From Alphaproteobacteria bacterium (GTDB taxonomy: Bacteria > Pseudomonadota > Alphaproteobacteria > Rs-D84), in NCBI GenBank assembly GCA_015062525.1, contig SUUM01000004.1, positions 24,547 through 88,546 of the forward strand: 64,000 bases of DNA, read 5' to 3'. The position numbers were made by a program, and so were the translations under genes. Position 1 is the first letter of the stretch; each line of letters starts with the position of its first letter. The notes under the pieces were generated by a model. The model saw only the letters and a program-made list of their open reading frames with translations. It was not told the origin of the DNA and did no database searches. Of this stretch, positions 49,005 through 63,930 are shown piece by piece.

Positions 49005-49080
49005 GCCGGTTTAGCTCAGCTGGTAGAGCGGCTGATTTGTAATCAGTAGGTCGTTGGTTCAAGTCCGACAACCGGCACCA
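49005..49080 (+). tRNA. tRNA-Thr (anticodon TGT)
   Basis: 76 nt; acceptor GCCGGTT/AACCGGC; loop TTTGTAA; T-loop TTCAAGT; encoded CCA. Confidence 0.8.
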
Positions 49081-49290
49081 GAATTAAAACGTACCATTTG
49101 GTGCGTTTTTTCGTTGGGTTTCCCTGCCTTTTTGATTTTTGTGTTGGGTGGCGAACTTGCGCGGGGCTGGCTATTTTTATTTTATTCGGGGCATGTAATT
49201 CCAACCCATTTCCGCCCCATGCCCCCAAACCACCAAAAACTGTGATGCAACAATAAAAAAAGGCGCCAGTCTGACGCCTTGCTGTATCAA
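49081..49290. repeat. modular ~300-bp repeat, copy R1 (tRNA-Thr-adjacent, terminator-exit variant)
   Basis: Shares the gcgttttttcgtt...attttattcggggc...ctgtgatgcaacaataaaaa core with R2, R3 and R5; ends in a hairpin terminator for the minus-strand gene. Confidence 0.8.
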
Positions 49291-49587: not shown

Positions 49588-49683
49588 ATGTTTCTCCTTT
49601 TTACTTACATAAAACTAACAGAATATTTTCATAAAATCAATCTTCAATAAGACATGTACAAGCTGAATAATACTTGTTAAAAC

Positions 49684-49985
49684 GCTATGTGAGGCGATGT
49701 GTGATGCAGGCGGACCAAATCAACTGGCCGACCACTATTGGAAATCTTGGACTTTGGACTCGCCTTGGCATCCCGACAAAGGCTACCCGTTTAAAAACGC
49801 ACCAAACGGTGCGTTTTTTGTTTAGATTTCCCTGCCCTGTTGGATTTTGTGTCGGGTGGCGAACTTGCGTGGGGCGGGCTATTTTTATTTTATTCGGGGC
49901 GTGCAATTCCAACCCAATCCCGCCCCATGCGCTAAAAATACAAAAAACTGTGATGCAAAGTGTGATGCATTGTGGTATAGTTAAC
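49684..49985. repeat. modular repeat copy R2 (promoter-exit variant, TGgTATAGT extended -10 at 49973..49981)
   Basis: Contains the gctatgtgaggcgatgtgtgatgcaggc head, a tRNA-Thr 3'-end-like stretch (CGCCTTGGCATCCCGACAAAGGCTACC), terminator AAAAACGCACCAAACGGTGCGTTTTTT, and TGTGATGCA direct repeats before the -10. Confidence 0.85.
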
Positions 49986-50001: not shown

Positions 50002-51201
50002 ATGCAACAGAGACAATTAAACAAATTAAAAGAAATAACCAAACAAAATTTTAGCTTTGTTCCTGCAGATAAAAATATGTATGGAATCAAATACTATGAA
50101 CACAAATGCACAAATGATGCTGAGTACCATGAAATTGCAGGTATATTAAATCAATACCCCAATATGTTCTATACTTGCATAGAACATAAAGACAACACTG
50201 TTTCTATTGCAGTTTTACAAAATATTTTGGACAAAAAACGCATAGAAAATATAATGTGGCACAAAGATTGCCAAGCATCAAAAGTAGAATCCATAGGTAA
50301 AATTCATGGAAATGATATTTTTTTGGAACAAATCCCGACACAATCTGGAACAATGCACAACGTTATCAATCACAGCAACCGGGCAGTCGCAATCGTAAAT
50401 ATTAACGGCTATCGGTTGCCCTTTTATGTCTCTTCTGGAATTTCCGGGAAGGAAACAGAATATGGTATACCGTCAGAAAAATGGTATCCTTTGCAGGGAA
50501 TATCAGACAGTGGTTGGTTAAATAAAATGCCCGACATGCAAAAAAATCCATACCCAGAACTGGACGAAATTTGCAAAATTCTGGAAACAAAATTCCCCGC
50601 CACAAAATACAAAGAAATGGCACTGAACGAAAGTTTGCCTAGAGCCGACAAAACCATACTTTTGGAATATGCGAACAGCAACTTTCCCGAAGGAACCCCT
50701 TTTAATGAAAACGGATTATACCAATACTACAGAAATCACATAATATATTTGCCAGCAATAATAGACGCATGGCGTTCTAAACCAAATGACTATTTAGAAA
50801 TATCAAAAGGAGTGTTGCAGATTTCTGAATTGAACACAGTAGACAAAATTCGCACATTAGATTTGATGGCCAACTCATCATTAGATGGCGATTATATCTG
50901 GTTAAAACCCGTCCAACATCAATTAAAAAACCAGACAGGCGCAGAAACAAGCCAAAACATACAGAATCAACTGCACAACATTGGTATTTTTTCCAATACC
51001 GTTGTTAGCTCTGATAATAAAAATGGGTTTGGTATACCAATCCAAATATTTCAAGACTATTTTAGACAAAAACAAACACAGAAATTTGTGGATGCCACAC
51101 AAAAAATTGATAAGACAGATTCAAAAAAAGACAAAAGACAAAATATTTCACAACATATTATGAAACGCTTTAAAGACCTTCTTGATAACTATAAACGGTG
51201 A
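50002..51201 (+). CDS. hypothetical protein (399 aa, no recognisable domain)
   Basis: Driven by the R2 promoter; AAAGG RBS. Confidence 0.5.
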   Translation: MQQRQLNKLKEITKQNFSFVPADKNMYGIKYYEHKCTNDAEYHEIAGILNQYPNMFYTCIEHKDNTVSIAVLQNILDKKRIENIMWHKDCQASKVESIGKIHGNDIFLEQIPTQSGTMHNVINHSNRAVAIVNINGYRLPFYVSSGISGKETEYGIPSEKWYPLQGISDSGWLNKMPDMQKNPYPELDEICKILETKFPATKYKEMALNESLPRADKTILLEYANSNFPEGTPFNENGLYQYYRNHIIYLPAIIDAWRSKPNDYLEISKGVLQISELNTVDKIRTLDLMANSSLDGDYIWLKPVQHQLKNQTGAETSQNIQNQLHNIGIFSNTVVSSDNKNGFGIPIQIFQDYFRQKQTQKFVDATQKIDKTDSKKDKRQNISQHIMKRFKDLLDNYKR

Positions 51202-51492
51202 GGCGATGTGTGATGCAGGCTGAGTAATCAACTGTCTGAAACCATTGGAAATCTTGGACTTTGGACTCGCCTTGGTATCCCGACAAAGGCTACCCGTTTA
51301 GAAACGCACCAAATGGTGCGTTTTTTCGTTGGTGGTTCCCTGCTCTTTTGATTTTTGGATTGGGCGCAACACCCATGCGGGGCGGGAGGGTTTTATTTTA
51401 TTCGGGGCGCACAAATCCAACCCAAATCCGCCCCACGACCCCAAAACACCAAAAACTGTGATGCAAAGTGTGATGCAGTGTGGTATAATTTG
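51197..51492. repeat. modular repeat copy R3 (promoter-exit variant, TGgTATAAT at 51481..51489)
   Basis: Same architecture as R2; perfect extended -10 consensus 25 bp upstream of the next ATG. Confidence 0.85.
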
Positions 51493-52622: not shown

Positions 52623-53261
52623 CTACACTGCTTGCGATAACCAATCCGGCATATCAATCAGCGTGAATTTTTCACCATCATATTCCAGTTTGAAATATTC
52701 TGCATTTGGCATTCCGCCACGTGGCCATTTTATATCTGTGAATTGTTTGATTATATTTTTCGCCACCCCCGTATGTGTTGCAATGGCGATTGTTTTGCCG
52801 TCTGAGTTTTTTACGATATCCAATATCGCATTACGAACACGCGCAATAAACATATTATAACTTTCACCGTTTGGTGGGACATAATCGTCATTAGACAGCA
52901 ATGCAAACGGTGCATAAATTACATCACCTGACATATCAATCGGGGTATCTGCAGGGCTATCAGTCAATTTTACAATATGTCCACAAAAATCACCCATATT
53001 CCATTCACGCAAATCACCATTTTGTATAATCTGTTGGTCGCCAGCCACCGCACGTGCTGTATCCAATGCACGCGACAACGACGAAGAATACACAACATCA
53101 AACTTTATACCCGACAATTTTTGTGCCAATGCTTGTGCCTGGGCCACACCATTGGCATTTAATGGCACGTCCAGCCACCCCTGCATACGTTTTTGGATAT
53201 TTGCGTCTGTTTCGCCATGTCGAAAGATATAAAGTATTTTTTTCATGATAGAATTATACAA
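52623..53261 (-). CDS. histidine phosphatase (phosphoglycerate mutase-like) family protein
   Basis: N-terminal RHGETDAN catalytic motif. Confidence 0.7.
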   Translation of the reverse strand: MYNSIMKKILYIFRHGETDANIQKRMQGWLDVPLNANGVAQAQALAQKLSGIKFDVVYSSSLSRALDTARAVAGDQQIIQNGDLREWNMGDFCGHIVKLTDSPADTPIDMSGDVIYAPFALLSNDDYVPPNGESYNMFIARVRNAILDIVKNSDGKTIAIATHTGVAKNIIKQFTDIKWPRGGMPNAEYFKLEYDGEKFTLIDMPDWLSQAV

Positions 53262-53289
53262 TCTAAACCACCAATTATCAACATGTGTT

Positions 53290-53345
53290 ATCTGTTAAAA
53301 TGCTATGTGAGGCGATTTGTGATGCACTAATAAAAAAACCGCCCA
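53290..53345. repeat. partial modular repeat R4 (head motif + terminator)
   Basis: gctatgtgaggcgatttgtgatgca followed by ctaataaaaaaaccgcccaatcgggcgggg. Confidence 0.7.
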
Positions 53346-53361
53346 ATCGGGCGGGGTAATA

Positions 53362-54255
53362 TTACCTGTCGTTTTGGTTGTTATTTTTTGCCCAGGACTT
53401 TTGCATCTGATATTTTATTTCATCAAATCTAAATTCTGCAAAACCAATCAATTCAGACAAAAGCATTTCTTTTTCAGCGCGCGTAAATTTGCGCGGTTTA
53501 TGGGTTGCGACAAAATCCGCACGCATTTGGCGTAATTTTGTAGTCTGTTCCCCTGTTGGCATTTTGTGTGGTGACAAAGCCCTGTCTGTGCGAACAATAT
53601 TATTCTGGCGCAGGTTTATGTACGCCATATCGCCGGGACCTTCGGTATAATTTTGATATTTGAAACCAGTCAGACCAATTGATTCAAAATACAAAATCAT
53701 ACGCTGAAAGAACAAGTTTTCTGCGCTGTGGATATCAAATAATGTTTCCAAACCTAATTCTGTTTGTATTGCTTCCACAGTCATTGTGCTACGCACCGGT
53801 TCACATATCCAATCAAACTGCCACGGCACATCAATGTCCTTATCCAACACCGCTTGTTTTGCTGTTTCAATCTGTTTGCGAAACTCAGATTCGTCATGAA
53901 TATTCAACACACGAATGAAGTCGGCAATTTTATCGCCACACATATACTGAAATAAAACCCCCATAAAGTTCTGCACACTGTGGTCGTTCAGGTCTGGTAT
54001 TTCATCCCAACGCCCAGCCTGCAAATTCACGGGTATTATCTTGGGCTTTGTAATATCAATATTTGGGTCGCGTTTCCATTTTCCTTCGTTCAGATTGGTT
54101 TGTGCATTCACCAATTTGCCAAAGTGTGTCAATGGGCGAAAATAATCAAAATCATAATAAGTGCCATGATACATTGTTAAAGGTTTGCCATCTGTCCCCA
54201 ACAACACCGGCGATAAACAATCGGGCATATCAATAATATATGGAAACGAAACCAT
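53362..54255 (-). CDS. hypothetical protein (297 aa)
   Basis: Start overlaps the GNAT gene stop (operon); no recognisable domain. Confidence 0.5.
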   Translation of the reverse strand: MVSFPYIIDMPDCLSPVLLGTDGKPLTMYHGTYYDFDYFRPLTHFGKLVNAQTNLNEGKWKRDPNIDITKPKIIPVNLQAGRWDEIPDLNDHSVQNFMGVLFQYMCGDKIADFIRVLNIHDESEFRKQIETAKQAVLDKDIDVPWQFDWICEPVRSTMTVEAIQTELGLETLFDIHSAENLFFQRMILYFESIGLTGFKYQNYTEGPGDMAYINLRQNNIVRTDRALSPHKMPTGEQTTKLRQMRADFVATHKPRKFTRAEKEMLLSELIGFAEFRFDEIKYQMQKSWAKNNNQNDR

Positions 54256-54836
54256 TACTTACCCTTATATTCCGACTTTAGTTTCGAAAACAACAGATGA
54301 TTCATATATGTGCCGTCTGGCATTTTATTCGCAGCACGTTCAACACCATCCAGTTGATAACCAGCCTTTTTAATCGAATTTACCGAACAAACATTGCCCT
54401 CCATCGCCTGACGACAGATACGATTTACCCCCAGTTCTTCAAAACCCAATTTATCAATCAGCTTATGCACTTCCTGATTAAAGCCTTGGCCGCGAGCAGA
54501 TTTAATAAACCATACACTGGAACACTGTATCGTATCACAATGGTCTATGTAGTGAAACCGCTGATATCCAACGAATTTGCCATTATGAAAGATATACCAA
54601 ACAACACCGTCTTTATAACCTGCCTCTCGCTGCATCAATTTTAACAGTTCATCGACAGATTCAGGCAAATGATTTTTGTATGATGCTGAATACCGCATAT
54701 ACTGATAATCGGCTGGATTTTCATTTTTCAGCACATCCCACAACATCTGTGCGTTCGCAATAGTTGGCTTTAATACTCGCAACTCTAAACGTTCCGTCTT
54801 AATATCGCGATTAAATATTTCATAAAATTTTTCCAT
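54255..54836 (-). CDS. GNAT family N-acetyltransferase (RimJ/RimL-like)
   Basis: 193 aa with acetyl-CoA-binding motifs (Q/R-x-x-G-x-G/A pattern ARGQGFNQ). Confidence 0.65.
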   Translation of the reverse strand: MEKFYEIFNRDIKTERLELRVLKPTIANAQMLWDVLKNENPADYQYMRYSASYKNHLPESVDELLKLMQREAGYKDGVVWYIFHNGKFVGYQRFHYIDHCDTIQCSSVWFIKSARGQGFNQEVHKLIDKLGFEELGVNRICRQAMEGNVCSVNSIKKAGYQLDGVERAANKMPDGTYMNHLLFSKLKSEYKGK

Positions 54837-54888
54837 CTACTTTGTCCTTTTGTTATCCCATTTATTTTATCACATTTTTTGTTAAAAT

Positions 54889-55195
54889 GCTATGTGATGC
54901 GATGTGTGATGCAGGCGGACCAAATCAACTGTCTGAAAATATTGGAAATCTGGGACTTTGGACTTGCCTTGGCATTCCGACAAAGGCTACCCGTTTAAAA
55001 ACGCACCAAACGGTGCGTTTTTTGTTTGGTTTTCCCTGCCCTGTTGAGTTTTTATGCTTGGCGCGCCACCTGCGCAGGGCGGATGGGTTTTATTTTATTC
55101 GGGGCGTGCAAACGCAACCAAATCCTACCCCACGTCCCCAAAACACCAAAAACTGTGATGCAACAATAAAAATCCGCCCATTTGGGCGGGTTTAT
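54889..55195. repeat. modular repeat copy R5 (terminator-exit variant)
   Basis: Full-length copy ending ctgtgatgcaacaataaaaa + hairpin ccgcccatttgggcgg. Confidence 0.85.
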
Positions 55196-55215
55196 CTTGT
55201 TAAATATTTTCACAA

Positions 55216-55782
55216 TTATTCTGCGTCCTGTTGTTTCTTGCGCAACATTAATTCTGGTTTGCCAGCATTTAATTCTGGCGACACTGCAAAACCCAATCCG
55301 TCTATGAATGATTGAATCTGAGATTTCACTTGCGCCACATCCACATCATCGGCGGTGCAATATTCCACCTCTAAAAACAGCCCCAGATCTGCCACAGTTT
55401 CAAATTCAATTGTATAATCGCCCGCACGGTATGTGCGTTTCAGGTTGTCAATCCGTATCAATTCACGCAACCCCAGCGCATTCATAATATCGCACAAAGT
55501 TGACATATCAGCAACGGTTGTTTCGGATTCATCAGAATACAACCATGTGTCACCGTCAAAATGGTCGTACTTGTACGTGATATAATTTGTGCCGTCTTTT
55601 GCACGTGTGCGACAGCATGCATACAAGCGGCCATTGCTGTCGGGTTGTAAATCTGGGCGCAATGGGTCGTAATAGTATGTATCCACCGTACGTTTATCGC
55701 CCAAGAAGTCAAATTCAGATAATTTACGCAGAACATCTGCTTCGTCTGCGAAAACCTGAACCAAGATTTCAATTTCTTTCAT
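55216..55782 (-). CDS. CYTH-domain protein (triphosphate tunnel metalloenzyme / class IV adenylate-cyclase-like)
   Basis: N-terminal KEIEIL and C-terminal GLFLEVEY motifs typical of CYTH; the Lys of EIExK is replaced. Confidence 0.55.
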   Translation of the reverse strand: MKEIEILVQVFADEADVLRKLSEFDFLGDKRTVDTYYYDPLRPDLQPDSNGRLYACCRTRAKDGTNYITYKYDHFDGDTWLYSDESETTVADMSTLCDIMNALGLRELIRIDNLKRTYRAGDYTIEFETVADLGLFLEVEYCTADDVDVAQVKSQIQSFIDGLGFAVSPELNAGKPELMLRKKQQDAE

Positions 55783-56170
55783 AAGATGCACCCTTTGTGA
55801 TATTCTAAACCGCTTTTTCAGAAATATCAATATTTTCCAATGGAATATAATGTCTGTGACACAAGTAAATCCGCCGGCAGTTGTGGATGGAATAGCAGGT
55901 CCAGGATTGGCACCCAGTGCATATCATCGTGGACACGCAGTTGGATTTCGTATGTGTGGTCCAAAATCTTGTATACGTGCGGAATTACACAAGCAGAAAA
56001 TATTGCGCAACCGATAAGAATCTTTTGTTATCCCGCAATTCAATGCTCACCCAAATTCAACAGATGTCAAAAAGGATTGTATGCTGTGAAAAAATCAGCA
56101 TATATAAACTTTGACAACATAAATATTGTAATCTATACTGATTCTATAACCCCAGCCATAAGGATTTGAA

Positions 56171-57016
56171 ATGCCTGAAAAAAACACCCTGTATGATAAT
56201 TTGCGCAATCCAGTTTCAACAATTGAACGCGGGCAACCAATCCCCAGCGGATTGAACAAGCTGTCTGTGCATGTATGGATTGTAAATGATGCCGGCGAAT
56301 ACCTGTTGCAACAACGCATGGGTACGGCCAAGAAATTTCCAAATATGTGGGGCCAGACTGGTGGCGGGGCAATCGCAGGCGAATCCAGTTGGGATGCGTG
56401 TGTTCGCGAAACAATGGAAGAGTTAGGACTGACACCAGACCCAAAAAAATCTGTATTGGTTGGCACAATTAAGCGACCGATAGATTTCGTTGATGTGTGG
56501 CTAGTGCACAGTAATGTTAAAATTTCTGATTTAAAACCACAGGCAAGCGAGGTGCAATCCGTCAAGTGGGCAACACTGGCGGATATTCAACACATGCAGT
56601 ACGACAATGAATTTATTCCGTCTATTGTTCCAGGGTTTAATATGGTTTTGAATTATCAGAAAATGGTAAATCCCACGCCAGTAAATGCACGTGATTTCTT
56701 GGGCAAATTAGTGCGTGTACAAATGGACAGGCCCCTGGGCAGCAAACATCCAAAACACGGCTTTACATACGAAGTGAATTATGGTTTTATCCCAAACACC
56801 ATATCGGGCGATGGCGAGGAGTTAGATGCGTATGTATTGGGGCCAGATTATCCGTTAAAGGATTTTCTGGGACGATGTATTGCAATCATTCACCGTACTA
56901 ATGACAACGACGATAAACTGATTGTTGTACCGGATGGGTTTGATTTTGCAGATGAATATATTGAACAAAAAACTGCTTTCCAAGAACAGTGGTTCAAGCA
57001 CACGATTATAAGATAA
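56171..57016 (+). CDS. NUDIX hydrolase fused to an inorganic pyrophosphatase-like domain
   Basis: Nudix box GGGAIAGESSWDACVRETMEELGL; C-terminal region matches family I PPase (YEVNYGFIPNTISGDGEELDAYVLG vs E. coli [23 protein letters not shown]). Confidence 0.65.
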   Translation: MPEKNTLYDNLRNPVSTIERGQPIPSGLNKLSVHVWIVNDAGEYLLQQRMGTAKKFPNMWGQTGGGAIAGESSWDACVRETMEELGLTPDPKKSVLVGTIKRPIDFVDVWLVHSNVKISDLKPQASEVQSVKWATLADIQHMQYDNEFIPSIVPGFNMVLNYQKMVNPTPVNARDFLGKLVRVQMDRPLGSKHPKHGFTYEVNYGFIPNTISGDGEELDAYVLGPDYPLKDFLGRCIAIIHRTNDNDDKLIVVPDGFDFADEYIEQKTAFQEQWFKHTIIR

Positions 57017-57455: not shown

Positions 57456-58205
57456 ATGACAAGATATTATTGCAGCGGTTTTGACCTTAATAATATTTTT
57501 GGACACGGACTTGGCAAGATGTTCAAAGCCGAACTAGAAGACACAAAGAGCATAGTCTATATTCCTGCTGGTGCGGAAAAAATAGAAAAAGCACGTGCAA
57601 AACATATTCCTAATTTCACAAAGCATTTCAAAAATGTGGGAATAGAATTTGAATCTGTAAATATCATCACGCCCGAACTGTCCCCCGCAGAAGCAAAGGA
57701 TATGATAAAAAATGCAAACTTTGTCATGCTGATGGGTGGTAACCCCTATAAGCAAAAAGACCTTTGTAAAAGTTTGAACATTTTAGACGACTTGAAGAAC
57801 TATAATGGTGTTATGCTGGGGTTTAGTGCGGGTGCTATGATGATGTCTAAATATATCATTATCACGCCTTGTAGTGATGAGTTTCCAAATTTTCATATTG
57901 AGCCAGGTTTAAATCTGGATGGCATTTCAATTTATCCACATAATAACACATCAGACAAGGATTATCCGGAAGAACTTGTTTCTGGTGATGAAGTGTATAA
58001 AAAGTCAGATTTGCTACAGGTTGCCAAAGATTATGGTAAATTCTATCTATTACAGGATAATTTAAGAGAAGATGGCCTAACAGATGTCAGCTTTATCAGA
58101 TGTTCTAATGGTAATGTTGAATTTTATATCGAAAACGATGGCAAGATTTGGTTAGTTGACAAGGATATAACGCTGGTTAAAAATAATGAACCGTTGGACT
58201 TTTGA
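57456..58205 (+). CDS. peptidase S51 (dipeptidase E/cyanophycinase-like) family protein
   Basis: LMGGNPY and GFSAGA (Ser nucleophile) motifs match PepE IVGGGNTF / GWSAGA. Confidence 0.6.
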   Translation: MTRYYCSGFDLNNIFGHGLGKMFKAELEDTKSIVYIPAGAEKIEKARAKHIPNFTKHFKNVGIEFESVNIITPELSPAEAKDMIKNANFVMLMGGNPYKQKDLCKSLNILDDLKNYNGVMLGFSAGAMMMSKYIIITPCSDEFPNFHIEPGLNLDGISIYPHNNTSDKDYPEELVSGDEVYKKSDLLQVAKDYGKFYLLQDNLREDGLTDVSFIRCSNGNVEFYIENDGKIWLVDKDITLVKNNEPLDF

Positions 58206-58524
58206 TAATGATGAATTGTTTGAACTAGTGCGCATAGGTCGAAAACGTGGAACCTGTGGCCGGAATTCTGACGAAGAACCAATGGCAAAAATTGGTGATG
58301 TTCAGGAAATCTATAATAGTCGTGGCGAAACAATACGAATTCAAATTACAGCCGTTCGAAAGTGTCGGTTTTGTGACATTGATGACGCATGGGCAAAAAT
58401 AGAGGGCGAAGGCGACCTGTCCCTGGCATACTGGCGTACGGTTCATATTGAATTTTTTAACAAATACTTTCCCGATTTTCAGGAAACTGATTGGCTGGAA
58501 TTAAACGAGTTTGTGGTTATATAA
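58186..58524 (+). CDS. ASCH (PUA-like) domain protein
   Basis: EGEGDLSLAYWRTVHIEFF pattern typical of the ASCH domain. Confidence 0.55.
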   Translation: MNRWTFDNDELFELVRIGRKRGTCGRNSDEEPMAKIGDVQEIYNSRGETIRIQITAVRKCRFCDIDDAWAKIEGEGDLSLAYWRTVHIEFFNKYFPDFQETDWLELNEFVVI

Positions 58525-59299
58525 CCTCTAATTCAATCCCCACAATGCCGTATTTTGATTCCATTTCGGCATCGTAAAATTTTGATATTGCGGACATCAA
58601 TGCGTTTAGCGATGCGAAACCGGTTCGGGGCATGCTGATTTTTGTGGCCAAGTCTGCAAAACTGCGCGCAATATGCAGGCGAACGATCTTTGCACGAATA
58701 TAATCATTGCGATTTTGCGCATCATATATCAGAATAACGTCGCCGTTGTGCATTCTGCGACGTTTTTCATCATACAGGCACAGTTCAATATCCTTTTCGC
58801 CGGAACGCACCATTTCATAATATTCAGGGCGCAAGCTCATTGAAAATTTACAGTCCAAGTTTGGCAAAATGTGCAGCGCATAAAATTCACGCATATCGTC
58901 AAATGGTGTGATTTTTGGGTTTAATAAGTCGTCGGGGGCAACCCATGCAACCGAAATTTCTTCGGGGCGATTTTCACAGAAATTCAATTCCATATCATCT
59001 GGGACGTGAACGATAAAAAAGTGATGTTCTTCGGCCCATGCGCCACGTTTTTGCGCCCGTTCGGGGGTTGGGTGACGAAATGCATATGGCACCGGAATTT
59101 CAACCACTTGGTCTGCCAGCGCAGATACAGCTTCGCCCAATTCTTCGGTCAGTTCACGCCGCAACGCAGTCAAAAAATCTTCGCCATCATCCAGTCGCCC
59201 GCCAATTGGTCCGTATCCGTTTTCGCCGTATTTTAATAGTGCAACCTGTCCATCACGCACTGGCAAGATATATGCTGAATAACTGATATCTTTTATCAT
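58517..59299 (-). CDS. NUDIX hydrolase fused to a C-terminal ASCH-like domain
   Basis: Nudix box PIGGRLDDGEDFLTALRRELTEELGE; C-terminal YYEMVRSGEKDIELCLYDEKRR..GDVILIY resembles ASCH. Confidence 0.6.
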   Translation of the reverse strand: MIKDISYSAYILPVRDGQVALLKYGENGYGPIGGRLDDGEDFLTALRRELTEELGEAVSALADQVVEIPVPYAFRHPTPERAQKRGAWAEEHHFFIVHVPDDMELNFCENRPEEISVAWVAPDDLLNPKITPFDDMREFYALHILPNLDCKFSMSLRPEYYEMVRSGEKDIELCLYDEKRRRMHNGDVILIYDAQNRNDYIRAKIVRLHIARSFADLATKISMPRTGFASLNALMSAISKFYDAEMESKYGIVGIELEVI

Positions 59300-59301
59300 C
59301 T

Positions 59302-59802
59302 CTATTCCTGGGGTTGTAGGGGTTCAATTGTTTGAATCGTCATATGTATTTCGCCTGATGGCACACTAACGGTTGTTTCATCCCCAACAGATAATCCGAC
59401 CAAGGGATGAACCAGTGGCATATTATATGCGTACTTTTGTTGCGGTATGTCTTCTGCCCCCAATGGCACAATCCCCAGCCTGCATTCTGTTTCTGCGCCA
59501 GTGGTTTCATTTTCTTGGGTCACGCATACCCAGCAATACAGTCCGACTGTTTCTGTGGTTGCCGGCTTATTCCTTGGTACGACAAGCATATTGTCCAGGT
59601 CTGCCAATAAATCAGCGACCAATTTTTCTGTCTGCTTTTCTTCCCTGGTCAAATGTTCATAGGCAAAATTATCATGCCATGTGTTTGTGTCTTCTGTGTA
59701 TGCAGCTGTCTTATCGTTGCGTATCTGGGCCAGTCGCTCTTGCAGCCCTTGAACCTTCCGTTGGGACTTATCAAAGTATTCTTTTGTTACAAAAATTTTC
59801 AT
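59302..59802 (-). CDS. GreA/GreB-domain protein (Rnk-like)
   Basis: C-terminal FKBP-like GreA domain pattern (VGLSVGDETTVSVPSGEIHMTIQTIE). Confidence 0.5.
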   Translation of the reverse strand: MKIFVTKEYFDKSQRKVQGLQERLAQIRNDKTAAYTEDTNTWHDNFAYEHLTREEKQTEKLVADLLADLDNMLVVPRNKPATTETVGLYCWVCVTQENETTGAETECRLGIVPLGAEDIPQQKYAYNMPLVHPLVGLSVGDETTVSVPSGEIHMTIQTIEPLQPQE

Positions 59803-59811
59803 TTCTGTTCC

Positions 59812-60582
59812 TTACAGATTTAATAAAACATCCTTTATTCGTGAACGAACTGCATGGTATTTTGCACGCAAGTCTGCGCCTTGGCCGACCAGATGTTGGC
59901 CAACGGCTGAATTATCAGACACAACCAACAGTGCCGATGCGGGTTTGCCTATAATCTGCATGGCCTTGAAAAAGGTTGCCGTTTCCATTTCTATCAGGGT
60001 TGCGCCCATTTGTCGAAACTCGTCCAAGTGTGCATATTCGCAAGCGATACTGTCGATTGATATTGGTGTCGCATCTTTGGTAGACATACCAACACTTGTG
60101 CAAACTCTCGACAATTCTGCATTTAATTCTGGTGATGAATATGTGCGTTCAAACATCTTTTCTGGACTTAATTTATCATCCAGGTACAATGTTGCGCCAT
60201 TGCCAGATATAGAACATGTTGGAACAATAACATCCCCGATTTCTAGTTCCGGAACCAATGAACCCACCGAGCCAACAAATACAAATTTTGCACAGTTGGC
60301 CGAATGACAGGACAAACAAAAGTCAACTATATTTGGCGCACCAACCTGTAATTGAATATATAAGTATGATTTGCCGTTATGTTTTATACGATGTGATTTT
60401 GAGAATCTGTCTGAATATATTTCAGCAATATCTGTTGTGGCACTATCAAAGACTTTATCAATTGGCCAAGATGGTGCAATAAATACGCAATCAAAATGTT
60501 CGGCAGACGATATTCCATACAGCTGTTGTAACATATCCGAACAAGATATGTTATCCTGACATGATTTGACTATTTTATTCAT
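59812..60582 (-). CDS. PNP/UDP-phosphorylase superfamily nucleosidase/phosphorylase (MTAN-like)
   Basis: FVGSVGSL and IEMETA motifs of the PNP_UDP_1 fold. Confidence 0.6.
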   Translation of the reverse strand: MNKIVKSCQDNISCSDMLQQLYGISSAEHFDCVFIAPSWPIDKVFDSATTDIAEIYSDRFSKSHRIKHNGKSYLYIQLQVGAPNIVDFCLSCHSANCAKFVFVGSVGSLVPELEIGDVIVPTCSISGNGATLYLDDKLSPEKMFERTYSSPELNAELSRVCTSVGMSTKDATPISIDSIACEYAHLDEFRQMGATLIEMETATFFKAMQIIGKPASALLVVSDNSAVGQHLVGQGADLRAKYHAVRSRIKDVLLNL

Positions 60583-61052
60583 TTTGTATCCTTTGATGCA
60601 CTGCGATATGATTTACATTCGGAATATATTTCGCCACGCGCCAATCCCGCCAATGATATACGGGTTGTTGAAACAACGTTCTTCAATTTGGCGACTTCGT
60701 CCAATGTGAAATATTGCATATCGGCACACTTGTCCCCCTCGCAATTACGAATTGTGCCGGTGTATTTTGACACCTCGAAAAAGAAATCAAAAGATTCTGT
60801 GCGACTGGCCAGATTGCTGGTAACGTGTACGCATTTGATGTCGTCGGGCGCAATGTCGATATCCAGTTCTTCTTTGGCCTCACGTATGGCGGCGGCACGT
60901 GCGGTTTCACCTTGTTCAATGTGCCCCGCCGGCAGAACCCACCAACCACCATCATAATTAAAAAAGCCATCATTGCGGAAGAATAATAACACTTTGTCGT
61001 CTTTTTTTATAATCAGGTTTATTACACCCTTGAACATTGCGCGTTCTGCCAT
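60579..61052 (-). CDS. NUDIX hydrolase
   Basis: Nudix box GHIEQGETARAAAIREAKEELDI; 4-bp overlap with the upstream gene. Confidence 0.8.
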   Translation of the reverse strand: MAERAMFKGVINLIIKKDDKVLLFFRNDGFFNYDGGWWVLPAGHIEQGETARAAAIREAKEELDIDIAPDDIKCVHVTSNLASRTESFDFFFEVSKYTGTIRNCEGDKCADMQYFTLDEVAKLKNVVSTTRISLAGLARGEIYSECKSYRSASKDTK

Positions 61053-61317
61053 TTCTTATCCTTTTTCTTATCTTAAACTGCTTTTTACGAAAATTCAATT
61101 ATTTCATATGGCCATTTTTATAATCGATATTTCTAATTCTTCTGGTGTTATACCTGCGTGGTGACTTTTAAGCACAAATGTGTCTGGCCGCTGTTTCAAG
61201 TCATATTTATCAGTTGCCAGCGCAACAAAATCATCAAAAACCGTGATATGATAAGATAAAAAACTTTTTTACACAAAACAGCCAATCGTAAAAAGAAAGC
61301 ACCATTTGGTGCTTTCT

Positions 61318-61832
61318 TTATTTTGTATTTGATTTCATTTTCATCGCTGATTTTACCAAAATATTATCTGGTTTGTTATTTTTTTGCAGGACTTCTGAAA
61401 TCAGATTTATCATAGGTTCACGATGACTGTTCACAAAACTCTTTATCTGATTTTGAATAATTTGCTGGACATCTTTCTCAGAATATTCTTTGAAAAATGC
61501 CGCCGTATTAGTCCAAATACCATATACATTGCCCAAATATAGATTATGCAGGGTTACAGGCTCGCCACGTTTGGCACGAACCCAACCATATTCATTACGC
61601 CCGGCATTAGTAATATGCAATCTCAAAGTCTCTGCTGACTTTACTGTTTTAGGAAACATATCAATATTCAAAGCAAAATTATCTTGAAACTTTACAATTA
61701 TGTTAAAAAATTTAACTGCATAATCATATATTTCTTTACCGTTTGGCGCAGGCCCCAATTTAGATAATTCCTTTTGCATCTGCTCTAGCTGATTCATCGT
61801 TTCAACTTTATTAATAGCTTTTTTAAACATCT
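61318..61832 (-). CDS. hypothetical protein (start at MFKKAINK; the ORF extends further upstream)
   Basis: GGAGA RBS before the internal ATG at 61832; no recognisable domain. Confidence 0.4.
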
Positions 61833-62028
61833 TATCTCCTTTTTTATTTACATTTATTATAACATAAATAAATAAAAAAAAAATAAAATAAAGCAGATAC
61901 AATAAAATCAACATCGGGATGCGAATCAGGACGCCAGATAAAAAAACCTGTACAAACTGAATAAGACTTGAAAACTGCTCTACAGGGCTAAGCGTTATAC
62001 AATTATGCTCAAACAACCGTTTTTTGTT

Positions 62029-62415
62029 TTATCTTGTTTTTTGGCATCTGTTATAGTGTCTGATATTACTAATTTTTTTATTCATTTCACACGCTTCGCT
62101 ATATGATTCCCGGTCGTATACAGGTATTAATACAATTGTTATATTTTGAACACTGTGGCCACAATCGGCTTTTAGCACACCCGATGTATTTTGAACAATT
62201 TTATTTGGTGTTATTTGTTTTGTGTTTATTTTTAGTTTTTTCAACAGTTTTATATTGGCATCAATTGCATTCTTTAAATCATATAAATAATCCTCTACTA
62301 TGGTCCCCCCCAGGGCCAGATTATCTTTTTCAGCTATAAAGAATGGTGGTGTGGTTGAAACAATAAAAATATTGTAATCATTATATATTTCGATTAAATG
62401 CTTCTGTTTTTGCAT
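62029..62415 (-). CDS. hypothetical protein (128 aa)
   Basis: ORF abutting the next gene's stop; no recognisable domain. Confidence 0.4.
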   Translation of the reverse strand: MQKQKHLIEIYNDYNIFIVSTTPPFFIAEKDNLALGGTIVEDYLYDLKNAIDANIKLLKKLKINTKQITPNKIVQNTSGVLKADCGHSVQNITIVLIPVYDRESYSEACEMNKKISNIRHYNRCQKTR

Positions 62416-63930
62416 TTATTTACCTTTTGTTGGTTGGGTGGTTGATGTTAAATCTGATGCACTCACTACTGTATACACGTCTGTTGCTAGACCACTTGCT
62501 TTCGTAGTTGCTTTTACGTCATTTGAAACCGTTTGCACTTGTTTTAGTGTATTTGTCGCTTTCATGCCTTTTATTGCTTTTATAGCATGACTACTGGGAC
62601 TCAGCGAAACCATACTTGCAGCAAAGGCCCCCGTGTCAATAGCATCTTTTATGACTTGATGAAAACTCATCCTATCTACAAGTGTGTTTAATTTGTTTGG
62701 CAGGTCTTTTTCATCTATACACGAGTCTTCAATAGATTTTAACGACTCGTCAAGAATTGCTTGCATATCCGGTGTTGAATTTACCATTGCATATGGAACA
62801 AGGTCATATATTTTATCAACATCGCAATTTTTGCTGTTACATGTGTTACATACATTGCATTTGTCACTGGTGCAAGCTGTTTTACATCCGCACTGATTTA
62901 TTAGATTAAGTATATCAAATCCGCTGGATGTGCCAACATTTTGCTGAATCTTATTCACTTCTGTTAACACTATGGATGTACTTGCTGCAACAATTGCTAA
63001 TGTTCCACCAGAGGCAACTGTGGCGGCAAAAAAACCCAGTGCCACCGCGCCTTCGATCAAAGCATCTACATTTTCTGATGTTTTCGCATCGGGCAAGTCA
63101 CAAATTTGCAGTTTTGGATTGAATCTGGTTTTTACCCCAAATTGGATCCCAAGGGCATTGCATTGTGCTTCACTTACCCCTGTACATCTGCCAGCAACAT
63201 ATTTCCCACCATCTACAAGGCATGCCATTTTTGATTTATCAGCTTGGCTGGTAATGCCACTGAATTCGCTTAGATCATCAAACACAAATTCTATGTTGTA
63301 TGAACCTTTTTCTTTGGTGGTGGTCAGAACACATTCTATTATATCGTCGGATGTACCCTTGACATTTTTACCATAATAAGCTTTTGTCATGGATGCACAC
63401 TCTAAAGATTTAAAATCACTTCCTAATTTAGATTCTACGTATTGACCTATCAGTACCTTGGTTGAATTATCAAATTTTGTTTGATAGCCTTGGAAAATAA
63501 ATGGATCTAGACCGGGATAGGTTTTCACGGACTCATCAGCGGTTTTTACCTTGAAATCAACGTAACAATAATAATTCCTAGTAGGTGTAACTGTACTTCT
63601 ATCTTGTTCATAAGTTGCACTAAAAGCAAATTTGTCAGAAACAACTTTTAGTTTATTACACAGTTCCCCTGTTTTTATTTTTTCACCACCCATACAAACC
63701 GTTTGCTTATTCGGTAAAATTCTGCCGCCGTAAAGTGTGCACAGCCCCTTGAGTGTCCCATATCGCATGTCATCGTCAACAGATTCAACCAGGTCATCAA
63801 ATTCAAATTCGAATACGTATTTGCCATCCGTAGAAGTGCAGGCTAAATAATCATTATTACCATCTTGTCTGTAACGCATCTGGCATTGAATGGTGTATGG
63901 GCCAATTTTTTCATAAACGTATTCTTGCAC
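62416..63930 (-). CDS. hypothetical Cys-rich protein (504 aa) with one predicted TM segment
   Basis: Cys cluster CGCKTACTSDKCNVCNTCNSKNC; hydrophobic stretch ALGFFAATVASGGTLAIVAAS. Confidence 0.45.
   Translation of the reverse strand: MQEYVYEKIGPYTIQCQMRYRQDGNNDYLACTSTDGKYVFEFEFDDLVESVDDDMRYGTLKGLCTLYGGRILPNKQTVCMGGEKIKTGELCNKLKVVSDKFAFSATYEQDRSTVTPTRNYYCYVDFKVKTADESVKTYPGLDPFIFQGYQTKFDNSTKVLIGQYVESKLGSDFKSLECASMTKAYYGKNVKGTSDDIIECVLTTTKEKGSYNIEFVFDDLSEFSGITSQADKSKMACLVDGGKYVAGRCTGVSEAQCNALGIQFGVKTRFNPKLQICDLPDAKTSENVDALIEGAVALGFFAATVASGGTLAIVAASTSIVLTEVNKIQQNVGTSSGFDILNLINQCGCKTACTSDKCNVCNTCNSKNCDVDKIYDLVPYAMVNSTPDMQAILDESLKSIEDSCIDEKDLPNKLNTLVDRMSFHQVIKDAIDTGAFAASMVSLSPSSHAIKAIKGMKATNTLKQVQTVSNDVKATTKASGLATDVYTVVSASDLTSTTQPTKGK

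Follow-up and report, generated by a model that had tools for sequence, protein, structure and literature searches.

A lineage-restricted Nudix–ASCH fusion protein facing a free ASCH protein in 'Candidatus Enterousia': a possible role in the sanitation of modified cytidine nucleotides

Introduction

What are two ASCH-domain genes, one free and the other fused to a Nudix hydrolase, doing at the point where two operons run into each other? The question is raised by a stretch of 64,000 nucleotides from an alphaproteobacterial genome assembly (GCA_015062525.1, contig SUUM01000004.1, positions 24,547 to 88,546), which will be called the window. A preliminary description of the window had noted a stand-alone ASCH gene converging on a gene for a Nudix–ASCH fusion protein, and had suggested that the ASCH domain, presumed to recognise modified bases or RNA, was paired with the Nudix domain for the hydrolysis of a modified or capped nucleotide. 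Here, we describe the two proteins, their relatives and their surroundings. As a tentative preference, we propose that the fusion and its gene cluster sanitise or salvage cytidine nucleotides that carry modifications, most plausibly N4-acyl groups.

The handling of modified nucleotides from RNA turnover is an active question, and only between 2020 and 2026 were ASCH proteins shown to be deacetylases of N4-acetylcytidine (ac4C) that act in nucleotide salvage. Escherichia coli YqfB is an N4-acylcytosine/cytidine amidohydrolase in which K21 is the base, T24 the nucleophile and E74 the acid, while R26 forms the oxyanion hole and its replacement by Ala (R26A) abolishes activity (PMC6972931). A survey covered 19 ASCH proteins with either a GxKxxExR or a GxKxxTxR motif, Pyrococcus kukulkanii homologues among them; every one strips ac4C from tRNA, and most also act on the free ac4C nucleoside (preprint 10.64898/2026.02.27.708502). 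The Lys and the Glu or Thr of the motif are essential, while the weight of the Arg depends on the protein; variants without the terminal Arg are common in bacteria and lay outside the tested set (10.64898/2026.02.27.708502). In humans, EOLA1 serves nucleotide salvage by deacetylating free ac4C (preprint 10.64898/2026.08.01.741249). Since every ASCH protein tested is an ac4C amidohydrolase, the domain can no longer be regarded as a presumed recogniser only, and for the fusion a two-activity enzyme is likelier than a reader joined to a catalyst.

Results

Structure of the Fusion Protein

Both open reading frames (ORFs) were found in the ORF list with exactly the limits given in Table 1, and their convergent geometry was confirmed. 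The 3' ends overlap by 8 bp (58517–58524) within a 12-bp palindrome, and both proteins end in Val-Ile. Profile searches with Pfam upheld the domain calls of the preliminary description. The fusion matched NUDIX with 48.9 bits (residues 11–133) and ASCH with 39.3 bits (residues 154–260), above the cut-offs, and the free protein matched ASCH with 59.3 bits; the curated gathering threshold of ASCH (PF04266) is 21.2 bits. The same architecture was present in 151 homologues of the fusion. Structure prediction also bore out the expected folds: the AlphaFold2 model of the fusion (predicted local distance difference test score, pLDDT, 92.5; predicted template modelling score 0.85) contains an α/β/α Nudix fold, and both ASCH domains, including that in the model of the free protein (pLDDT 94.9), have the PUA-like fold of a β-barrel with α-helices.

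The Nudix box of the fusion, GX5EX7REUXEEXGU, is complete, running G34...E40...R48-E49-L50-T-E52-E53-L-G55-E56. Its catalytic residues were invariant in 15 diverse aligned members of the family, and the strict pattern was retained by 112 of 118 representatives. In addition, the family has invariant residues of its own, namely H76, H92, an FCExR motif with C108, and C150. RppH was the nearest Nudix structure to this half of the protein. The NCBIfam equivalog models, however, were all matched far below their cut-offs, with 26.3 bits for RppH (NF001936; cut-off 118) and 21.2 bits for NudI (cut-off 95), and no MutT or NudG equivalog match was listed. The proline rule for ADP-ribose pyrophosphatases was not used: the residue concerned, P71, which lies 15–16 residues past the Nudix box, varies in the family.

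The ASCH motif of the fusion family is GxKDIELR; 117 of the 118 representatives, and every one of the 42 species loci, carry the terminal Arg. In the window allele, codon 174 (58778–58780) is TGC, which puts a Cys in place of this near-invariant Arg. The same allele occurs on 23 independent contigs and is thus not a sequencing error. Position 174 aligns with R26 of YqfB and, judged by this alignment, the window allele lacks the Arg of the YqfB-type oxyanion hole.

Differences between the Two ASCH Domains

The preliminary description spoke of ASCH domains in two forms. This holds in that one is stand-alone and the other fused, but they are not one domain in two forms: they share 31% identity over 59 residues, have different nearest entries in the Protein Data Bank (PDB), and by sequence comparison belong to different subfamilies, the free domain being 3s9x/1t62/YqfB-like and the fused domain PH0355-like. 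A recent duplication of one ASCH gene is ruled out by the low identity over only 59 residues and by the different nearest structures.

In the free protein, K20 and T23 are invariant and E73 is nearly so. These residues fall opposite K21, T24 and E74 of YqfB in a profile alignment that is statistically weak and agrees with the structural match; YqfB ranked second or third among the structural matches of both ASCH domains, and was not found among the PDB sequence matches of the free protein. At the position of the oxyanion Arg, R26, the free protein has G25, and thus lacks the Arg of the YqfB motif.

Distribution of the Nudix–ASCH Architecture and Related Fusions

A word-indexed search with the ASCH half of the fusion alone returned eight proteins and was uninformative, and it was replaced by an exhaustive profile search over 1.84 billion representative proteins. 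Only one cluster at 50% identity matched the fusion over its full length (P0085, 466 bits). Next came an orthologue with Nudix alone (229 bits) and proteins with ASCH alone. The Nudix–ASCH fusion family is lineage-restricted.

Other ASCH domains have been joined to pyrophosphatases independently. NUDIX–ASCH fusions with the same type of ASCH domain were found in four further matches (P0207, P0158, P0175 and P0272), the reverse order, ASCH–NUDIX, in P0153, and fusions of an inorganic-pyrophosphatase-like domain to ASCH in P0201 and P0161. There was also a weak MazG-like–ASCH fusion (P0186) and a methyltransferase–ASCH fusion (P0273). The pyrophosphatase-like module at the N-terminus of P0201, which comes from another bacterium, shares 53% identity with that at the C-terminus of a Nudix–pyrophosphatase protein encoded in the window cluster (Table 1). 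By these sequence matches, Nudix, mini-pyrophosphatase and ASCH are linked by all three pairwise fusions. The other ASCH–pyrophosphatase fusions lie in housekeeping contexts. At one such locus, in an unrelated bacterium (L058, 5454–6696), the pyrophosphatase–ASCH gene overlaps the end of a gene for 3-methyladenine DNA glycosylase I (Adenine_glyco), which hints at a link between PH0355-type ASCH domains and the handling of alkylated bases.

In a census of 36 multidomain ASCH relatives, Nudix occurred in 10, a count inflated by the Nudix domain in the query profile itself. The other partners included tRNA and DNA methyltransferases and GDSL acylhydrolase, Macro, DNA-alkylation-repair and GNAT domains. 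No description of a Nudix–ASCH fusion, or of a pyrophosphatase joined to a base-deacylating domain, was found in the searchable literature.

Conservation and Neighbourhood of the Fusion Gene

The 49 related loci from species-representative genomes all belonged to 'Candidatus Enterousia' or to metagenome-assembled genomes of gut Alphaproteobacteria. Members of Ca. Enterousia (order Rs-D84) have genomes of less than 1 Mbp without pathways for the synthesis of nucleotides, amino acids and lipids (PMC12306168), and so have to take up nucleotides that other organisms produce, among them modified ones.

The gene arrangement of the window was identical on 23 contigs. The frequencies of neighbours at 48 species-level loci were taken from a tblastn map; adjacency counts from greedily chosen ORFs under-count owing to spurious antisense ORFs. 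A gene for a 157-residue Nudix hydrolase lies upstream of the fusion on the same strand at about 25 of the 48 loci and is directly adjacent at 16. The gene for a Gre-factor paralogue adjoins the fusion upstream at 11 loci, and that for a phosphorylase-like protein is nearby at eight. The free ASCH gene abuts the fusion tail to tail at 13 loci, which come from two deep clades, and lies within about 1 kb at two more. It is absent from the remaining 33 and from all three distant contexts described below, so that an obligate two-gene module is ruled out. The free ASCH gene and the fusion thus form a recurrent but optional association, and the more constant unit is a Nudix gene followed by the Nudix–ASCH gene. 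The ASCH domain of the fusion itself is dispensable, and was cleanly lost at least once: a Nudix-only protein at one locus (L051) shares 94% identity with the Nudix half of the fusion at another (L038) and ends exactly at the domain boundary. A separate clade (L052–L055) is Nudix-only as well. Beside one of these Nudix-only orthologues is a gene for an 879-residue protein in which a unit of about 40 residues is repeated in tandem, nearly unchanged, some ten times (L054, 6355–8994), and a 109-residue ORF overlaps the start of the Nudix gene (L054, 9670–9999).

All close relatives share exactly this palindromic junction; no terminator-like site was seen between the converging genes. One explanation that we considered is mutual regulation of the two operons, through colliding transcription or antisense RNA across the palindromic end, by which the free ASCH protein and the fusion would be expressed as alternatives. 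The 8-bp overlap within a perfect palindrome would be consistent with such an arrangement, as would the tail-to-tail junction, with another sequence, that recurs in L042 and L047, members of a distant clade in which the fusion is only 53–55% identical. However, tight packing is to be expected in a genome of this size, common descent may account for the retention of the junction within the close clade, and the pair is absent from most species. We regard this explanation as very improbable.

The neighbourhood is otherwise a mosaic, in which 451 ORFs within 4 kb fell into 240 clusters across the 48 loci. In three distant species a lone fusion has other neighbours. In the first, it adjoins a type I restriction–modification (R-M) system, GmrSD and DNA methyltransferases; in the second, it adjoins Mrr and an ADP-ribosylglycohydrolase beside an integrase island; in the third, it adjoins a small Nudix gene, beyond which lie an integrase, Bro-N, an SLFN-like helicase with Nudix, and a resolvase. 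These variable regions (L003, 1–5920 and 10456–12073; L005, 9823–18786; L007, 6505–11875) abound in restriction and defence genes, and their contents include two N6/N4 methyltransferases, AAA_13, integrases and a serine recombinase.

Such surroundings raise the question of whether the fusion belongs to a fast-evolving locus of defence or counter-defence that recognises and destroys phage-specific modified nucleotides or nucleotide signals, with ASCH as a sensor of a modified base. The hypervariable neighbourhood and the company of the distant orthologues point in this direction, and published surveys tie prokaryotic ASCH domains to R-M systems and modified bases. The preprint on EOLA1 notes links of prokaryotic ASCH to R-M systems and to acetyltransferases (10.64898/2026.08.01.741249). 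Furthermore, a candidate single-gene Nudix system in PADLOC (PDC-S07) matches the neighbouring Nudix genes with 42 bits. Its match to the fusion, however, reaches only 18 bits and seems to reflect what Nudix domains have in common in general; this was the only model of PADLOC-DB 2.0 to match the fusion and none matched the free ASCH protein, so that neither is assigned to a known defence system. The window cluster has no recognisable effector (nuclease, toxin or NTPase sensor) and no mobility gene, and the housekeeping contexts of the other ASCH–pyrophosphatase fusions do not suggest conflict. A tblastn search of phage and plasmid collections found no homologue, and a phage or plasmid origin was rejected on this ground; in PHROGs only a generic "RNA-binding protein" family and Nudix families were matched. 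The adjacency to R-M systems in three distant species may reflect the sharing of variable regions. We consider a role in conflict to be distinctly unlikely.

Organization of the Gene Cluster

Two convergent operons meet at the free ASCH gene and the fusion gene (Table 1). The forward operon runs from the Nudix–mini-pyrophosphatase gene through a stand-alone Nudix gene and a peptidase S51-family hydrolase to the free ASCH gene, the start of which overlaps the S51 gene by 20 bp. The reverse operon runs from a Nudix gene through the genes for an NP-I-like protein and the Gre-factor paralogue to the fusion. The CYTH gene is divergent from the forward operon. Hairpins at 55170–55193 and 61292–61319 bracket the cluster, and each of its genes is preceded by a Shine–Dalgarno-like sequence. 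About 6 kb of a genome of about 0.9 Mb thus hold four Nudix genes and several other enzymes of nucleotide phosphates.

Table 1. Features of the convergent operons, in window coordinates.
Feature	Position	Strand	Remarks
Free ASCH protein, 112 aa, last gene of forward operon	58186..58524	+	Pfam ASCH; DUF984/YhfF-like subfamily
ASCH octapeptide of free protein, GRKRGTCG, residues 18–25	58237..58260	+	G, Lys, Thr present; terminal Arg absent
NUDIX–ASCH fusion protein, 260 aa, last gene of reverse operon	58517..59299	-	Pfam NUDIX + ASCH
Nudix domain of fusion, residues 1–148	58856..59299	-	Nudix box residues 34–56 at 59132–59200
ASCH domain of fusion, residues 150–260, PH0355-type	58520..58852	-	
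ASCH octapeptide of fusion, GEKDIELC, residues 167–174	58778..58801	-	Codon 174 TGC
12-bp perfect palindrome GGTTATATAACC	58515..58526	.	Contains stop codons of free ASCH and fusion
CYTH (triphosphate-tunnel/class IV adenylate-cyclase-like)	55216..55830	-	Pfam CYTH 49 bits; NCBIfam cyaB 66.1 bits (cut-off 57.95)
Promoter-like site TTGACA-17-TATACT, upstream of forward operon	56111..56139	+	11/12 matches; consensus scan only
Nudix joined to short inorganic-pyrophosphatase-like module; 281 aa; opens forward operon	56171..57016	+	Pfam NUDIX 56.2 bits, Pyrophosphatase 34.5 bits
Stand-alone Nudix hydrolase, 134 aa	57036..57440	+	Pfam NUDIX 37.4 bits
Peptidase S51-family hydrolase, 249 aa, 5' of free ASCH and overlapping it	57456..58205	+	Pfam Peptidase_S51 48.4 bits
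Gre-factor paralogue, 166 aa, immediately upstream of fusion, same operon	59302..59802	-	Pfam GreA_GreB C-terminal domain 38.1 bits
Divergent NP-I family nucleoside phosphorylase or nucleosidase-like, 256 aa	59812..60582	-	Pfam PNP_UDP_1 73.3 bits
Stand-alone Nudix hydrolase, 157 aa, first gene of reverse operon	60579..61052	-	Pfam NUDIX 64.8 bits
Hairpin plus T-run, just past start of reverse operon	61292..61319	.	

Several of these genes call for comment. The real start of the CYTH gene is probably an internal ATG, giving a protein of 188 residues, which is the length called in an identical contig (L001). The pyrophosphatase module of the first gene of the forward operon spans only about half of the Pfam model, and the same module is a stand-alone protein of 130 residues at seven related loci (e.g., L010, 11959–12351). 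An S51 gene or a variant of it adjoins the free ASCH gene or the fusion at several loci. The nearest solved structures of the NP-I-like protein are methylthioadenosine (MTA) phosphorylase (MTAP), uridine phosphorylase, MTA nucleosidase and AMP nucleosidase. The Gre-factor paralogue gives a full-length but weak match to GreA/GreB, far below the NCBIfam cut-offs, and its N-terminus has the length of a coiled coil.

The presence of a Gre-like gene next to the fusion bears on another explanation, in which the fusion would be an RNA 5'-pyrophosphohydrolase or decapping enzyme similar to RppH or NudC. The ASCH domain would then target the Nudix domain by binding RNA, or erase ac4C from tRNA, and the Gre paralogue would link the system with transcription, e.g., by way of initiating nucleotides that are non-canonical. 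The closeness of the Nudix half to RppH and the action of the tested ASCH proteins on tRNA fit this explanation. However, the RNA-binding ASCH proteins described in the survey are basic (10.64898/2026.02.27.708502), unlike the proteins of the cluster, all of which are acidic, with isoelectric points of 4.6–5.5. On balance, we think a role at RNA ends rather unlikely.

The surroundings are chromosomal. Ahead of the cluster region are genes for PGK, a U32 peptidase, acetate kinase and tRNA-Thr; in identical metagenome contigs, GrpE, TIM and SurA come after it. Of six tRNAs detected in the window by Rfam and tRNA scans, none lies within the cluster. No integrase or transposase is present between tRNA-Thr and the end of the window, and an integrated mobile island was rejected on this ground; this region instead contains a family of direct repeats of about 190–300 bp, 82–85% identical, at 49065–49250, 49674–49975, 51198–51483, 53293–53326 (a fragment) and 54879–55215. 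The first copy starts inside the 3' end of tRNA-Thr, and every copy carries a terminator-like hairpin (AAAAACGCACCAAACGGTGCGTTTTT). Between them, the repeats break up the DNA from tRNA-Thr to the Nudix cluster into segments that resemble cassettes, and copies are also found in a few close relatives (L014, L022, L024 and L057).

One segment (52623–54836) encodes a histidine phosphatase, a 297-residue ORF and a GNAT acetyltransferase, the stop codon of which overlaps the start of the next gene. The 297-residue ORF has a very weak match to ART-PolyVal (ADP-ribosyltransferase; E 0.004, 20 residues), and the trio partly co-occurs with the fusion at another locus (L030). On the other side of the cluster (61318–63930), there are three consecutive ORFs on the reverse strand (232, 128 and 504 residues) without Pfam matches, the longest with a Cys-rich central part. 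In L001, they are followed by two unannotated proteins (695 and 357 residues) and then GrpE.

Discussion

Of the interpretation given in the preliminary description, we keep the general idea of a Nudix domain acting on a modified nucleotide. From these features we infer that the fusion would be a two-activity enzyme for modified pyrimidine nucleotides. Its Nudix half would take pyrophosphate off a non-canonical ribo- or deoxyribonucleoside triphosphate, or off a substituted nucleoside diphosphate (NDP-X), which would thereby be kept out of nucleic acid. The PH0355-type ASCH half, with its amidohydrolase fold, would strip an N4-acyl or similar group from the cytosine, leaving ordinary, reusable cytidine monophosphate or cytidine. 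The free ASCH protein, YqfB-like in its putative Lys-Thr-Glu triad, would perform the same deacylation on the free base or nucleoside, while the Nudix, mini-pyrophosphatase, CYTH and phosphorylase-like neighbours would contribute the removal of pyrophosphate, the cleavage of triphosphate, and the separation of base and ribose. N4-acylated cytidine nucleotides are the favoured substrate because every tested ASCH protein is an ac4C deacetylase.

Sanitation or salvage is preferred because of the secure domain and fold assignments, the conserved catalytic motifs, the biochemistry of ASCH proteins in the literature, the three-way network of pyrophosphatase fusions and the nucleotide enzymes that share the operons. 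The acidic isoelectric points, the housekeeping contexts of the other fusions, the dependence of the host on imported nucleotides and the failure to find homologues in the phage and plasmid collections argue in the same direction.

Several observations weigh against this preference. The C174 allele, at an Arg that is essential in YqfB and TthASCH, may have weakened the ASCH half of the window fusion. The equivalog scores leave the substrate class of the Nudix half unassigned. The alignment of the free ASCH protein with YqfB is statistically weak, and its subfamily is without the Arg altogether, like the variants that lay outside the published survey. Fusions of the ASCH subfamily to tRNA and DNA methyltransferases, Macro and DNA-alkylation-repair domains mean that nucleic-acid substrates fit equally well, and the apparent enrichment of Nudix among its partners is inflated by the query. 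Finally, the distant orthologues adjoin restriction, GmrSD, Mrr and SLFN-helicase genes.

A broader possibility, which we regard as a speculative and improbable extension, is that the ASCH–pyrophosphatase fusions (Nudix–ASCH, ASCH–Nudix and miniPPase–ASCH, the last with the mini-pyrophosphatase) together represent an unrecognised pathway that would dephosphorylate and then de-acylate. In Ca. Enterousia, it would be placed inside a hypervariable, cassette-like Nudix array that filters the modified nucleotides of neighbours and phages.

The natural covalent fusion of ASCH to Nudix predicts that N4-acylated cytidine is a physiological substrate in its nucleotide forms as well, and the joining of PH0355-type ASCH domains to a mini-pyrophosphatase elsewhere points in the same direction. 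The fusion is a compact enzyme on which this prediction can be tested, and its sub-megabase, nucleotide-auxotrophic host makes the need for pool sanitation concrete. Such enzymes may be of use for ac4C-containing therapeutic RNA or for N4-acyl-cytidine prodrugs. If the prediction fails, these would simply be further uncharacterised Nudix and ASCH genes.

Comparison with Known Systems

The free ASCH protein differs from YqfB (GxKxxTxR) in the absence of an equivalent of R26, in a family-specific EGEGDxSLxYW motif, and in having no significant sequence similarity to it. Its other relatives, 3s9x (Lactobacillus crispatus ASCH) and 1t62 (Enterococcus EF3133, DUF984; "YhfF"), have 159–166 residues, with N- and C-terminal extensions that are absent from the 112-residue Enterousia protein. 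The fused ASCH domain differs from YqfB by a Glu in place of the Thr (the GKER type). Its closest relatives, PH0355 and PF0455 (PDB entries 2z0t and 1s04), are structural-genomics entries for single-domain archaeal ASCH proteins of about 110 residues without a Nudix partner.

With Nudix pyrophosphohydrolases such as RppH, NudG/ORF135, NudI, NudB and MutT, the fusion shares the Nudix fold and the complete Nudix box; it differs from them in its C-terminal ASCH domain and its own invariant residues, and in reaching the cut-off of no equivalog model. The closest functional parallel would be the house-cleaning pyrophosphatases of the Maf, MazG and Nudix families. Maf proteins keep modified nucleotides from RNA turnover, including m5CTP, m5UTP, pseudo-UTP and m7GTP, out of the pool (PMC3899018). 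The role proposed for the fusion is the same, without any sequence relationship to Maf. What sets the fusion apart from these enzymes is the covalent joining of its pyrophosphatase to a putative base-deacylating domain. The fusion is a lineage-restricted combination of two known enzyme domains, rather than a new kind of system.

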